From NCBI GenBank assembly GCA_964583985.1, contig CAZOYD010000025.1:1-27966 (forward strand): 27,966 nt of DNA. Reading direction: 5' to 3'. Below are positions 7,498 to 24,727 of the stretch, piece after piece (position 1 is the first letter of the stretch; every line of letters starts with the position of its first letter). This DNA is from an uncultured archaeon (GTDB taxonomy: Archaea; Asgardarchaeota; Lokiarchaeia; Sigyniarchaeales; SOKP01). Under the pieces are notes generated by a model, which was given only the letters and a program-made list of their open reading frames with translations, did not search any database and was not told the origin of the DNA. Position numbers and translations under genes: made by a program.

Positions 7498-8157
7498 ATG
7501 AAAGAAGAAGAAGAATTATTAGTAAAATTAAAAAGCGCAATTTTAAAGGGAGAGCCAAATAACGCAATTGAATTGGTTAATAAATCTATTAATATGGGAA
7601 TACCTGTCAAAGAGATATTGAATAAAGCAATTCTTAAAGGCGCTGAAGAAGCTGGGAATTTATATGAAAAGGATGAATATTTTCTTCCTGATTTACTAAT
7701 GACTGGTGATGCCATTAATGTCGCTACTGATCTATTAAAGAATTCATTAAAAGAAAAATCTGAAATTGAGTCTAAAGGTACTATATTAATTGGAACAGTG
7801 GAAGGTGATGTTCACGATTTAGGTAAGAGTTTAGTAGTCTCACTATTACAAGGACAAGGTTTTGAAGTTGTTGATTTAGGATCAGATGTTTCACCAGAAG
7901 AGTTTCTTCGGAATGCAAAAGAAATAAGTCCCATACTGATAGGTTTGAGTGGACTAATGACAATGAGCATCTCTAAAATGGTTGAAACAGTTAATTTACT
8001 TAAGAGTGAAAATATACAGTCTCGAATAATCGTTGGTGGTGGAATTTTATCAAAAGAATCATGTGATATGATAGGAGCAGATGACTTTGCCAAAGATGGC
8101 TGGGAAGGAGTTAAAAAAATAAATAATTTAATACAAATCAAAGAGGTGAAACAATAA
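7498..8157 (+). CDS. Corrinoid (B12-binding) methyltransferase cognate protein, MtaC/MttC-like
   Basis: N-terminal four-helix cap (YFLPDLL), then GTVEGDVHDLG (DxHxxG), DLG.DV, SGLM and VGGG motifs. Confidence 0.93.
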   Translation: MKEEEELLVKLKSAILKGEPNNAIELVNKSINMGIPVKEILNKAILKGAEEAGNLYEKDEYFLPDLLMTGDAINVATDLLKNSLKEKSEIESKGTILIGTVEGDVHDLGKSLVVSLLQGQGFEVVDLGSDVSPEEFLRNAKEISPILIGLSGLMTMSISKMVETVNLLKSENIQSRIIVGGGILSKESCDMIGADDFAKDGWEGVKKINNLIQIKEVKQ

Positions 8158-8158
8158 A

Positions 8159-9238
8159 TTGGTTAAAGATTGGAGTGCTTCTGTTAATAGAATATTTAGG
8201 ACAATAGGAGGATCAAAAAGAGTAGATAAAGTTCCGTTTCTTGCATTTGCTGGGGAACAAATGATTTGTCGAGTAACTGGAAAAACTGTGAAAGAATTAT
8301 ATAGTTCTCCAAAAATTTATGCTAATGCTATTATAAATACTTTTGAGTTTTTAGATACCGATTCTATAAATGTTCCAAGTGCCTACGCAGGACCCAGCGA
8401 AGCATTAGCATTTGCGGAAGCGAACAACAAATTAGATGCGATTAAATGGTTTGATTATAAACCTCTAATGTGTAAACAAGGAGTAATTTGTAAATCTGAA
8501 GAAGATATTGAAAAGTTAGAAATTCCAGATCATGGCAAGAATAATCTCTGGAAAACTACCTTACTCACTGCAAAAATGATTAATGATAAAATAAAATTTC
8601 CCCAAGTAATCAGCTTAAGCATTTGGTCTGTTGTTCAGGAGTTGCGTGGCTTAGAAGCCTATAAGGACATGCGGCGAAATCCAGATTTATTATTAAAACT
8701 GTGTGAAAAAATCTATGAATCTCAAATGGATGTTTATGAAAATTGGCTTGAAATTGTAGGCATGCCTCCTAATGTTTTTATTGCAGGATACTCATTTAAC
8801 CGTCACATGATGAGTTTTCAAGATGCCATGCGCTATGAAGGTCAGTTCATTAAGAGGATGATGAATAAAATAAAAGTTCCGTTCATGCTTCATAATTGTG
8901 GAACTTCGCCATATTTCACAGAAGTTGTTAAGGAAATTGACTTCATTGCAGTGAATGGAAGTCATCCGTTAGATATTGAATATTGGATTGATTTCAAAAA
9001 GAAAAATCCAAAAATTGTAATTATAGGTGCCAATATTGACGTGAGTCGAGAAATGTTCACTGGAACCCCTACTGATGTTGAAGAAAAGGTAAAAGAAAAC
9101 ATCTTAAACTTAGCTCCGGGGGGTAGATATATCTGTTGTCCTGTTTGTAGCTTACCTTGGGGAGTATCCATTCCCAATATCTTAGCAATTCCAAAAGCAA
9201 TTGAAAAATATGGGCATTACCCCATAAAAGTCAATTAA
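8159..9238 (+). CDS. URO-D family methylcobamide:acceptor methyltransferase (MtaA/CmuA-like)
   Basis: TTG start 1 nt after the corrinoid gene stop, with GAGGTGA SD at 8143-8149. URO-D fold motifs. Zinc-ligand pattern LHNCG and a distal Cys (CCPVCSLP). Confidence 0.8.
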   Translation: MVKDWSASVNRIFRTIGGSKRVDKVPFLAFAGEQMICRVTGKTVKELYSSPKIYANAIINTFEFLDTDSINVPSAYAGPSEALAFAEANNKLDAIKWFDYKPLMCKQGVICKSEEDIEKLEIPDHGKNNLWKTTLLTAKMINDKIKFPQVISLSIWSVVQELRGLEAYKDMRRNPDLLLKLCEKIYESQMDVYENWLEIVGMPPNVFIAGYSFNRHMMSFQDAMRYEGQFIKRMMNKIKVPFMLHNCGTSPYFTEVVKEIDFIAVNGSHPLDIEYWIDFKKKNPKIVIIGANIDVSREMFTGTPTDVEEKVKENILNLAPGGRYICCPVCSLPWGVSIPNILAIPKAIEKYGHYPIKVN

Positions 9239-21098: not shown

Positions 21099-22469
21099 TT
21101 ATTTCGTTCCAGTTGTCATTTTCACATCTTCAATTAACATATATGGAGCAAAAACAGGATTGGTTCCGAGCCAAGTAAAAACTTGTTTTAATTCTTTTCC
21201 TAAAGCTATTGTATGTTCAAGCATATGATAATGATCAGAATTGATTCTTAATTCTCTAACGGGTTCAAGTTTTTTTCCTTTATTTGTAATTAAAAACATT
21301 CCGTCCTTTGGAAGTGAAGATAAAGCACCAGGTGGAGCATACGATTGATACCTCGTATACCACGTTGATGTTATGAGTAATGTGGGCTTGTTAGATATTT
21401 CCATTAATTCCTCAAGGGAGTAATCGCCAGTGGAAAAGACCGTATTAGTAGGTTTAGGGACAGTGATACCCGCATTTCCAGTAGATTCTTGACCTTTATT
21501 GGAAAGTGATGTGTTCGTGAAAAATTGATGAATTTTTCCCTTGTTGATCAATAAGGTTTTTTTTGTTGGTACTAGCTCATCATCAAAGGGAGATGTTTGT
21601 ATTCCATAATCCATGATACCATCATCCCAAACCGAAATGAGATCGTTTGCGATTTTATCACCTTCTTTTTTCCCTACTAACCAAGCAAGTCCCATTTTTT
21701 GGGTATATTTATTCATCGCAATTGATGGGGTGGGAGCTTGTAGCTCTGTTGATACTTTTGGATAAATTATAATGTTATAGATTCCTGGTTTCCCTTTTTT
21801 ACCGCCTATTGCTTGCTTGCATATCATTCCTGCTTCTCGTCCAGCATCAATTGCATTAAATCCGTGATCAAGATGAGTAGAACAGGATATTGCTTCTCCT
21901 GTAGCATACATGTCTTCAGCAAACGCTCGTATTCTGAAATTTAAATGAGTTTTATTAAATGATCCTTCTAATCCCAGACTATTTTTTTGAATTACTTGAG
22001 TATCTCCATAAAAAAATGAACCAGCAACCCTATTTGCTCCTTCATTTAAAGCAGTTTCAGTGGCATCATTAACTATATCAACAGCAGTTTCATCCAAATT
22101 AACAACTTTTTGATCAAATATTTTCTGTTGTATTGAAGGATTATATTCAAATGGTCCTGCTGGCATCTTTTTATAATTCAGGTTTAATTTAGCAACTTCA
22201 AGAAGCTTTTCACAATTTTGCAATGCTTTATCTATAGCTATAATACTTAGATCATTAATTGAAATATCTAAAGTTCTTCTCCTTTGAGATAGAAACAATA
22301 TTATCTTTATTTCATTCCAACTTTTATATATATCAATCTGACTCTCAGAAAATCGAATTTGATTTTCATTATTAAGAAGAGCTTTAATCGCCCAATCAGT
22401 ACAAAACTGTTCTAATCGCTCTTCAATAATATCAATTAATTGGTATGATTTTTCTTCCATTTCATTCAT
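21099..22469 (-). CDS. TldD/PmbA family protein, non-catalytic PmbA/TldE-like subunit
   Basis: PFDDELVP...LI..G, STGNAG and P....RI motifs. Lacks HExxGH. Starts 11 nt after the tldD stop, with a GAGGT SD overlapping that stop. Confidence 0.85.
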   Translation of the reverse strand: MNEMEEKSYQLIDIIEERLEQFCTDWAIKALLNNENQIRFSESQIDIYKSWNEIKIILFLSQRRRTLDISINDLSIIAIDKALQNCEKLLEVAKLNLNYKKMPAGPFEYNPSIQQKIFDQKVVNLDETAVDIVNDATETALNEGANRVAGSFFYGDTQVIQKNSLGLEGSFNKTHLNFRIRAFAEDMYATGEAISCSTHLDHGFNAIDAGREAGMICKQAIGGKKGKPGIYNIIIYPKVSTELQAPTPSIAMNKYTQKMGLAWLVGKKEGDKIANDLISVWDDGIMDYGIQTSPFDDELVPTKKTLLINKGKIHQFFTNTSLSNKGQESTGNAGITVPKPTNTVFSTGDYSLEELMEISNKPTLLITSTWYTRYQSYAPPGALSSLPKDGMFLITNKGKKLEPVRELRINSDHYHMLEHTIALGKELKQVFTWLGTNPVFAPYMLIEDVKMTTGTK

Positions 22470-22480
22470 TGTATTTTACC

Positions 22481-23947
22481 TCAGGCTAGCCTCACTTTTC
22501 TCAAGCGTACAAATGGACCTCCTGTCCAAACTGGACATCCTTGACCTGGTTCTGATTTTCCACAAAATGCACCTTGCCATTCCAGAGTTTCTAATTTCCC
22601 TTGAGCATCAATACTACTAAATAATCCTGGTGAAGAAATCTCGAGTGCTGGTTTCAATATCATTGAATTCGTAAGTTCCCCATTTTTTATTAAATATGCT
22701 TCTTGGCCTACATATTTCGATTGCAGTCTCTTATCATCAATGTTCCATTCAGTAAAGGAATTCATAAATATTCCTAATTTAACATCTTCAACCATCTCTT
22801 CAAATGAATAATCCCCTGGAGCAAAATATGTGTTTGCCATTCTTATTAATGGTTCTCGATCATATGCCACTGCTCGAGCAGCAGCATTACTTTGAGTTCG
22901 AAAAATTGAAGCAGACTCTCGATTTTGAAGCATTTCATTAAAAATTCCATCTTTTATCAGCTCTCTTTTTCTCGCTTTGACGCCCTCATCATCAAATAAA
23001 TAAAATCCATATGATCCTTTAATCGTGGGATCATCGAATACATTTACACAATCATTGCCAATTTTATATCCAATAGAATGTTCACGTAAATAAGATTCAC
23101 CAGCTTGAGCACCTTCCCTTCCAAGAATACGATCTGCTTCTGAAGGATGTCCACAGTTTTCATGTGCAATTATTCCAGCCACATCCGGTCCTAATATGAC
23201 ATCAATATCTCCCTCAGGTGGTTTTTTTGCTTTAAGAATGATATCAGACAATTTTACTACCGTATTTCTAACTTTTTCCTCTAAATTCCAGGATATTAAA
23301 TCATCCCATCCTGAAGATGTTGCATAAGTGGCCATTGATTGCTCATTCTGTCCGCCACCCTTAATTCCTATTACTACTGGAATAAAAGCAACGCGAGGAA
23401 TATGACTTCTAATCCTTGAACCTTCACTATTAACGAAATAAGCTTCCCGTTGTTCTGCAAGAAGAACAAAAATATGAATAAATTCTATAGGATATTTCTC
23501 ATTAAAAATATTGACAAAAGATTGCAAAAATTTTATTTTTTCTTCTAATGATACGTCCATGGGATTTATTTTATACTCGCTTTGCCATTCTTCTTTATAA
23601 ACTTTCTCATCGCTCATTCCTATTGGGGTTTTTCTTTGTTTTCCACTCCTTTTTGCATTCCGATACGCACGATCCACACTCTCCATTATCATTTTTTTTG
23701 TAAATTGATTTGTCGATGTCATGCCCATTCCTCCATCGGCAATTATCCGGATATTTATTCCACTTTTTCTTGCAAACGCATCGCTTGTAAGCTCTATTGG
23801 CAAGTTTCCGATATGCAGTTTTCCATTTATAAATGAAACAGTATCCGTGCTATTTATTTCAGATCTTATTTCCACATATTCACAATACTTGCCATTAGAT
23901 TGTGCATATTCTAATGCAAATTCAACGAGAGCGTCATTTACAAACAT
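22481..23947 (-). CDS. tldD: TldD family metalloprotease, catalytic subunit
   Basis: HENCGHPSEAD (HExxGH..EAD), DDPT, FDDEGV, RMANTY and C-terminal CGK...GGP. Confidence 0.92.
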   Translation of the reverse strand: MFVNDALVEFALEYAQSNGKYCEYVEIRSEINSTDTVSFINGKLHIGNLPIELTSDAFARKSGINIRIIADGGMGMTSTNQFTKKMIMESVDRAYRNAKRSGKQRKTPIGMSDEKVYKEEWQSEYKINPMDVSLEEKIKFLQSFVNIFNEKYPIEFIHIFVLLAEQREAYFVNSEGSRIRSHIPRVAFIPVVIGIKGGGQNEQSMATYATSSGWDDLISWNLEEKVRNTVVKLSDIILKAKKPPEGDIDVILGPDVAGIIAHENCGHPSEADRILGREGAQAGESYLREHSIGYKIGNDCVNVFDDPTIKGSYGFYLFDDEGVKARKRELIKDGIFNEMLQNRESASIFRTQSNAAARAVAYDREPLIRMANTYFAPGDYSFEEMVEDVKLGIFMNSFTEWNIDDKRLQSKYVGQEAYLIKNGELTNSMILKPALEISSPGLFSSIDAQGKLETLEWQGAFCGKSEPGQGCPVWTGGPFVRLRKVRLA

Positions 23948-24550: not shown

Positions 24551-24558
24551 TTTAAATA
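24551..24558 (+). promoter_or_regulatory. Probable TATA box of the tRNA gene
   Basis: TTTAAATA about 30 nt upstream of the mature tRNA 5' end (24586). Confidence 0.5.
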
Positions 24559-24606
24559 TAATTTCAGTTTCACATGAAATTACATGCCTCCGTGGCTCAG
24601 TGGTAG

Positions 24607-24636
24607 AAAAACATGGATTTCTTCGTTTTTACCAAA
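24607..24636 (+). other. tRNA intron 1 (30 nt, position 22/23, relaxed BHB/BHL motif)
   Basis: Central helix TGGT(24601-04)/ACCA(24631-34), bulges AG^A and AA^A, inner A-run/T-run pairing. Removal restores the D stem. Confidence 0.85.
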
Positions 24637-24673
24637 AGCAGCTGACTTGTAATCAGCCGGTCGTGGGTTCAAG

Positions 24674-24703
24674 AATTTAGAACACGTTGTTCTGAGTTGA
24701 AAC
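24674..24703 (+). other. tRNA intron 2 (30 nt, position 59/60, canonical BHB)
   Basis: Central helix TTCA(24668-71)/TGAA(24698-701), bulges AG^A and AC^T, 10-bp inner stem ATTTAGAACA/TGTTCTGAGT. The outer helix is the T stem. Confidence 0.9.
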
Positions 24704-24716
24704 TCCCACCGGGGGC

Positions 24717-24727
24717 TCTTTTTCTTT
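24717..24727 (+). terminator. Pyrimidine/T-rich terminator after the tRNA
   Basis: TCTTTTTCTTT immediately follows the acceptor stem. Confidence 0.55.

Follow-up and report, generated by a model that had tools for sequence, protein, structure and literature searches.

The window, the whole stretch of 27,966 nucleotides analysed here, contains at positions 24586–24717 of the plus strand what is very probably a functional tRNA-Thr(UGU) gene with two introns that would be spliced by EndA. This reading is based on the sequence, on the motifs at the splice sites, on conservation and covariation in relatives and on the presence of the enzyme genes in the genome. The phenomenon as such is already published; the locus adds a lineage and a well-resolved example to it, and no new principle.

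Structure of the gene and of the spliced product

Exon 1 (24606 being its last position, 24586–24606, +, 21 nt; defined by the splicing test and the orthologue alignment) comprises the 5' strand of the acceptor stem, the 5' strand of the D stem, the D-loop and G22. It is followed by intron 1 (24607–24636, +, 30 nt), which interrupts the D arm between positions 22 and 23. Exon 2 (24637–24673, +, 37 nt) holds the 3' strand of the D stem, the anticodon arm with the anticodon TGT at 24648–24650, the variable loop, the 5' strand of the T stem and residues U54–G59 of the T-loop. Intron 2 (24674–24703, +, 30 nt) lies in the T-loop between positions 59 and 60 and separates exon 2 from exon 3 (24704–24717, +, 14 nt), which is formed by U60, the 3' strands of the T and acceptor stems and the discriminator U73; CCA is not encoded.

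When the exons were joined without both inserts, the resulting 72-nt sequence was called by ARAGORN as tRNA-Thr(tgt) with a complete cloverleaf, composed of an acceptor stem of 7 bp (one of them G·U), a D stem of 4 bp, an anticodon stem of 5 bp and a T stem of 5 bp. The anticodon loop reads CUUGUAA, the variable loop has 5 nt and the T-loop reads UUCAAGU. No tRNA was called when either insert was excised alone. The anticodon loop (CTTGTAA in the gene) is intact, and an intron at the canonical 37/38 site is absent from this gene. Threonine identity in archaea depends on the UGU anticodon arm, the pairs G1-C72 and C2-G71 and the discriminator U73. The spliced product has G1-C72, C2-G71 and U73, together with a 7-nt UGU anticodon loop placed on a 5-bp stem. 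An alternative boundary of insert 1, at 24608–24637, gives the same product, and the insert was placed at 24607–24636 because the bulge-helix-bulge (BHB) rule selects this position. In the first-pass annotation the gene was read as a hidden tRNA-Thr(UGU) interrupted at 22/23 and 59/60 but not at 37/38; the coordinates, the cloverleaf obtained by dual removal and the BHB geometry all agree with that proposal.

The flanks of the gene were inspected for transcription signals. A TATA-box-like sequence, TTTAAATA, is placed about 30 nt 5' of the tRNA (24551–24558, +) and may represent an archaeal promoter, and the T-run directly 3' of the discriminator (24719–24723, +) is a putative archaeal transcription stop.

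Two other kinds of interrupted gene were rejected. A split or permuted tRNA gene of the Nanoarchaeum or Caldivirga type was discarded, the three exons being collinear inside 132 nt. Group I and group II introns possess a ribozyme core of hundreds of nucleotides; the inserts measure only 30 nt each and had no match in Rfam.

BHB motifs and folding of the precursor

The BHB scan looked for the archaeal geometry: on either strand, 4 nt of helix precede a bulge of 3 nt, and cleavage takes place between the second and the third base of the bulge. Both inserts fit this geometry, with a 4-bp central helix and two 3-nt bulges on opposite strands. At insert 1 (TGGT/ACCA helix) the exon strand UGGU (24601–24604, +), contributed by the D-loop residues U16, G18, G19 and U20, pairs with ACCA at 24631–24634, and the helix is flanked by the 5' bulge AG|A (24605–24607) and the 3' bulge AA|A (24635–24637). 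At insert 2 (TTCA/TGAA helix) the exon strand UUCA (24668–24671, +), corresponding to T-loop positions 54–57, pairs with UGAA at 24698–24701, with the 5' bulge AG|A at 24672–24674 and the 3' bulge AC|U (AC|T in the DNA) at 24702–24704.

A closer look at the surrounding helices revealed that the two motifs differ in their completeness. Intron 2 adopts a strict hBHBh' arrangement, in which the 5-bp T stem (24663–24667 with 24705–24709) serves as the outer helix and the inner helix extends over 9 bp (24675–24683 with 24689–24697). Intron 1 shows h' only, that is, an inner 4-bp helix with its hairpin and without a stacked exon-exon outer helix, and three D-stem pairs can close it across an internal loop. 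Intron 1 is a relaxed BHB and, since the stacked outer helix is lacking, its removal would depend on a broad-specificity EndA.

The T-arm hBHBh' has a folding energy of −16.1 kcal/mol versus −18.1 kcal/mol for the minimum free energy (MFE) structure, and the full precursor holding both BHBs one of −41.2 versus −47.2 kcal/mol. The MFE fold given by ViennaRNA contains neither BHB, though both come close to it in energy; an uninterrupted helix of 8 bp takes up the D arm, and the T arm contains a 6x6 internal loop. This continuous helix in place of bulges, the missing stacked outer helix at insert 1, and a 2026 preprint that finds canonical motifs in just 33% of missed D-arm insertions (10.64898/2026.10.13.758758) would be in line with only the T-loop insert being a spliced intron, the D-arm insert being kept as an enlarged D arm or excised at other bonds by means other than EndA. 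We consider this improbable. Insert 1 sits inside the D stem (22/23), so that its retention would break the stem, and no tRNA is called when it is left in. Besides, four genomes preserve exactly this UGGU/NCCA helix and AG|A bulge despite variable interior and length, and the genome encodes an EndA of the type known to cleave relaxed motifs. With both inserts taken as EndA-spliced introns, G18-G19 and U54-U55-C56 are tied up in the central helices, and therefore the elbow between D-loop and T-loop, and with it the L-shape, would become possible only once both introns are gone.

Orthologous genes in relatives

The closest homologues of the tldD gene of the window (69–79% identity) belong to MAGs titled Candidatus Hodarchaeota archaeon or Promethearchaeota archaeon, i.e. 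Asgard archaea, which is in keeping with the Asgard host suspected earlier from the window alone; judged by these neighbour-gene homologues, the archaeon would be Hodarchaeota-like. Its genome (G000) amounts to 3.80 Mb in 138 contigs, with 31.7% GC, an estimated completeness of 100% and a contamination of 5.25%. The Thr(UGU) loci of relatives were aligned to the spliced sequence; those numbered L018–L025 were reached via tldD and are syntenic where the flank is present. The window, L019, L021, L023 and L025 all have the Thr(UGU) gene upstream of tldD, at a distance of about 650 nt. In the window, two adjoining genes of the PmbA/TldD metallopeptidase family occupy 21099–23947 (minus strand), and the order tldD–tRNA-Thr is kept in several Hodarchaeota-like MAGs.

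The exons match Thr(UGU) genes of at least 15 other genomes, among them intronless ones (L006, L011, L016 and L024; L013 presents only short alignment gaps of ≤11 nt), and the intronless orthologues are likewise called Thr(tgt). Identity reaches 72/72 in L004/L018, L021 and L022, where a D-arm intron is inserted at the same 22/23 site and the T-loop intron is absent. The D-arm introns of these loci (21, 26 and 29 nt) have unrelated interiors, and all of them end in GCCA plus two bases, keeping the UGGU/GCCA helix and the AG|A bulge. Across the four genomes the central helix UGGU/NCCA is conserved at intron lengths of 21–30 nt, with differing interiors.

An intron of 29–30 nt at 59/60 was seen in G013, G021, G007, G018 and DZ2M.348, and those of G013 and G021 are visibly homologous to intron 2 of the window. 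In agreement, a blastn-short search against the relatives' loci returned matches to orthologues for the T-loop intron alone, in G013 and G021. A further intron of 27–29 nt is placed near positions 29–32 in G013, G021, G004, G008, L015 and L023. By locus, anticodon stem/loop introns of 27–29 nt at about 29–32 were observed in L002/L003, L009/L010, L015 and L023. For the one in L023, a 4-bp central helix was found nowhere within 4 nt of the alignment boundary, and the one in L009/L010 offers only a weak helix, without a stacked outer helix, with 1 inner pair and a 3-nt shift. L025 carries a 31-nt insert near the canonical site. Thus, the comparison of intron presence in relatives, as proposed in the first-pass annotation, brings out several different configurations at the syntenic locus.

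The structure of the 59/60 intron was evaluated on six orthologues, in which 96.3% of the cells are paired. Changes on both sides occur in 8 pairs, of which 7 belong to the inner helix of 9 pairs; this was reached by 0/500 shuffles, and slid controls gave 32–56% paired cells. Selection maintains the intron structures in the relatives, as shown by the T-arm covariation and by the D-arm helix kept amid unrelated interiors.

Detection of the gene and search for a second Thr(UGU) gene

In the unspliced window ARAGORN calls no tRNA, and Rfam reports none at the gathering score. With relaxed thresholds, the unspliced locus scores 17.1 bits against the Rfam tRNA model, whose cut-off is 29, and the alignment bridges a 31-nt insertion. 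The expectation that default scanners would overlook the gene is thus borne out, ARAGORN and the Rfam tRNA model both failing on the unspliced sequence.

A SPLITS-like pipeline, in which BHB candidates were excised and the products submitted to ARAGORN, with the reversed genome as control, recovered about 22 loci by single removal and about 14 by double removal in the real genome, and 1 and 2, respectively, in the reversed one. Triple-intron removal genome-wide yielded mainly over-removal noise and no convincing new loci. ARAGORN coupled to free BHB removal is permissive, and a per-locus solver applied to this very locus gave a spurious Ser(gct) solution a slightly better rank than the true Thr one, as might be expected if two free deletions had built a cloverleaf from unrelated sequence by chance. 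The probability of such an origin is negligible: the reversed genome gave only 2 double-removal loci against the ~14 of the real one, the exons match Thr(UGU) in at least 15 genomes, some of them intronless, and a chance assembly of the cloverleaf is ruled out by the orthologue alignment.

Neither another UGU anticodon arm in a tRNA context nor a paralogue of this gene was found in the assembly. To the question of the first-pass annotation whether this is the only Thr(UGU) gene, the search of the 138-contig, 5.25%-contaminated draft assembly gave no other; 24586–24717 is the only Thr(UGU) gene found, and an unassembled second copy is possible in such an assembly. Among 982 long open frames, ACA accounts for 33% of the Thr codons and occurs 16 times in every 1000 codons. 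A Thr(tgt) call by ARAGORN at G000:C1:112626–112728 (+) was rejected; it is really a Ser(UGA) tRNA of 85 nt whose canonical 37/38 site carries an 18-nt BHB intron. In that case the intron placement of ARAGORN is unreliable.

These results also bear on the locus being a decaying tRNA pseudogene with two insertions, the Thr(UGU) function coming from elsewhere. The silence of the default scanners and the draft state of the assembly, in 138 contigs, could speak for it, but we judge it highly unlikely. The exons are 100% identical to orthologues of other species in the genus, whereas the introns have diverged, and the intron helices are held by compensatory changes. In addition, the TATA-like and T-run signals are intact, and no second Thr(UGU) gene is detectable, with ACA being a major codon. 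A functional two-intron gene remains the preferred reading.

tRNA complement of the genome

The standard tools see few tRNAs in this genome: ARAGORN 22 and Rfam 23 over the cut-off, about 10 of them uninterrupted. A rough census combining ARAGORN with a BHB score yielded 37 loci with uncurated boundaries; one or more introns interrupt about 27 of them, and two or more about 11. Because the boundaries and isotypes delivered by the solver are ambiguous, these figures are stated as lower bounds and the boundaries of the tRNA-Thr locus were set by the orthologue alignment. The high-confidence introns at non-canonical sites measure 27–32 nt and those at the canonical site 16–25 nt. The strict 59/60 geometry occurs 8 times in the genome versus 1 in the reversed genome, and in the T-loop/intron pairing UUCG is matched by CGAA and UUCA by UGAA. 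Searched against the genome with blastn-short, introns 1 and 2 showed no significant second copy and no repeat family.

One of these 8 occurrences is at G000:C9:58510–58555 (+), where a T arm (CACGG/CCGTG) is interrupted by a 29-nt strict 59/60 BHB intron, in a tRNA missed by ARAGORN, Rfam and the removal pipeline. This T arm is further evidence of hidden tRNA genes. A tRNA-SeC(tca) was called by both ARAGORN and Rfam at G000:C27:19492–19584 (+), which suggests selenocysteine use in this archaeon.

G000 and 39 relatives were examined with Rfam. Genomes of the genus with a completeness of 97% or more have mostly 20–28 tRNA hits, and the closed genomes of the sister family 24–33. These low counts in both the genus and the sister family point to an under-calling that is order-wide.

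Splicing enzymes and proposed pathway

A profile search identified two PF01974 genes in the genome. The product of the first (G000:C4, L028:1453–2076, minus strand; 207 aa), EndA alpha, is most similar to the alpha subunits, the catalytic ones, of A. pernix, S. tokodaii and P. aerophilum. In this protein the catalytic Tyr, His and Lys are conserved, and the loop YGAPLGISKPR aligns to the crenarchaeal-specific loop YGQPLDVEKPR. In the second paralogue (G000:C3, L029:1423–2040, minus strand; 205 aa) the Tyr is replaced by Phe, the His is lost and the loop is absent, and it is therefore predicted to be a structural, non-catalytic beta subunit. RtcB is also encoded in the genome. An (alpha-beta)2 EndA of Asgard archaea with an L1 loop, tied to a broad substrate range, was described by Kaneta et al. 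2018 (PMC5829648). The host EndA would be of this (alpha-beta)2 type with an L1 loop, and we infer its substrate range from that study.

In the pathway that we propose, the gene would be transcribed into a precursor of at least 132 nt containing the two 30-nt introns. The 3' parts of the introns would then pair with invariant loop bases, ACCA with UGGU of the D-loop and UGAA with UUCA of the T-loop, each pairing forming a 4-bp helix between two 3-nt bulges. A heterotetramer-type EndA, made up of the alpha subunit with the crenarchaeal-type loop and the non-catalytic beta subunit, would cut after the second bulge base, and RtcB would ligate the three exons, with the introns probably being circularised. 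End trimming and subsequent CCA addition would complete the molecule. That the gene is transcribed, that EndA cuts at precisely these bonds and that the exons are ligated is what we infer.

Possible mini-introns in protein-coding genes

The rnhB gene of the genome (G000:C1:127200–127829, minus strand) has one in-frame TAA. This codon is carried by a 30-nt in-frame insert (C1:127777–127806, minus), whose excision restores GLDEAGRGPVLGP and brings back the invariant DEAGRGP motif. The insert presents a BHB in which the UGGU/GUUG helix lies between the bulges AG|A and AC|A, with 6 bp or more in the inner helix. All four pairs of the central helix (4/4) are G·U wobbles, which makes it weaker than either helix of tRNA-Thr. 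The 5' context TGGTAG|A is common to the rnhB insert and the D-arm intron of tRNA-Thr. A BHB intron in an archaeal mRNA is known from cbf5 of Crenarchaeota. The 30-nt rnhB insert resembles this intron, unlike the tRNA-Thr case, which concerns a tRNA gene. A literature search on BHB introns in the genes of Asgard archaea or Hodarchaeales, or in archaeal mRNAs generally, retrieved nothing on the subject, and the rnhB lead is more novel than the tRNA-Thr finding.

It is tempting, if rather more doubtful than probable, to view the tRNA-Thr introns as part of a genome-wide set of EndA-type mini-introns of about 30 nt, present in protein genes and in most tRNA genes. The lengths of strict BHB-like folds in the real and reversed genomes display no excess at ~30 nt, any signal from a few dozen true introns being swamped by chance A-T helices (32% GC). 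When BHB excisions that join two long open frames into one were counted, no distinct peak emerged, with 17 at 31 nt and 12 at 32 nt over a background of ~8; operon junctions make the background of this count flat, and its thresholds drop N-terminal cases such as rnhB. In a Pfam scan of six ORFs at 7.5–14.3 kb of the window, none looks split by mini-introns. In this region, at 7498–9238 (+), a B12-binding corrinoid protein is followed by a URO-D-family (MtaA/MtbA-like) methyltransferase, and the pair looks like a methyl-transfer module. Were the mini-introns a genome-wide feature, the mRNAs of close relatives of eukaryotes would generally be processed by BHB splicing; introns of one size would be favoured, and they may have been inserted by a shared route.

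Comparison with known systems and implications

The two introns share with the canonical archaeal intron at 37/38 the 4-bp helix, the two 3-nt bulges, cleavage behind the second base of the bulge, and EndA and RtcB as the enzymes. They differ from it in position, and the introns at the canonical site are shorter in this genome (16–25 nt). Sites 22/23 and 59/60 are both, we presume, among the intron sites of Thermoproteales. The multi-intron tRNAs of that order are considered here as summarised in the 2026 preprint, which refers to Sugahara et al. 2008 and Fujishima et al. 2010 (10.64898/2026.10.13.758758). As far as that summary goes, the resemblance comprises non-canonical BHB introns, up to several per gene, and an (alpha-beta)2 EndA with the crenarchaeal-specific loop. 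The phylum is a different one and, whereas related introns recur in different tRNAs of Thermoproteales according to the same summary, suggesting transposition, no second copy is seen here.

The first-pass annotation had taken the locus as a sign of an under-described multi-intron system, a view that is not upheld by the literature. The relevance for the origin of eukaryotic tRNA splicing, suggested in the same place, is speculative. Heavily interrupted Asgard tRNA genes were published in 2024 (PMC11291895) and 2026 (10.64898/2026.10.13.758758), and the machinery, an Asgard (alpha-beta)2 EndA with a broad-specificity loop, has been known since 2018 (PMC5829648). Valentin-Alvarado et al. 2024 found introns in 92–95% of the tRNA genes of Atabeyarchaeia and Freyarchaeia, many of them non-canonical or multiple and some overlooked by tRNAscan-SE (PMC11291895). 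Goswami et al. (bioRxiv, Oct 2026), in a census of 90 Asgard genomes, reported that 30% of insertions are missed, mostly in the D arm, that T-arm insertions are placed at canonical BHBs, that gains are repeated, that two EndA paralogues are usual and that several Heimdallarchaeia lineages have <1 insertion per gene (10.64898/2026.10.13.758758).

The present gene resembles these published tRNAs in the several non-canonical introns per gene, in a D-arm insertion invisible to standard callers next to a T-arm one at a canonical BHB, in an intron content that differs among orthologous loci and fits repeated gain or loss, and in the two EndA paralogues of its host. In contrast to the published work, focused on Atabeyarchaeia, Freyr- and Jordiarchaeaceae, the genome here is Hodarchaeota-like as judged by its homologues, and only 22–23 of its tRNAs are visible. 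Intron length is also different, 27–32 nt at the non-canonical sites versus a reported median of 22–23 nt. Set against the figure of <1 insertion per gene given by Goswami et al. for several Heimdallarchaeia lineages, this Hodarchaeota-like genus may have more introns than they reported, a claim that our census is too rough to carry.

For the organism, the finding means that ACA, one third of its Thr codons, has this gene as its sole detectable decoder. Only about half of the tRNAs expected in a genome estimated to be complete are seen by standard tools, and the tRNA complements of this Asgard order are systematically under-called. Among close relatives the Thr(UGU) gene occurs with the D-arm intron only, with the D-arm and T-loop introns, with anticodon-stem and T-loop introns, with a near-canonical insert or with none, and this syntenic series is a compact natural set for the study of intron gain and loss.
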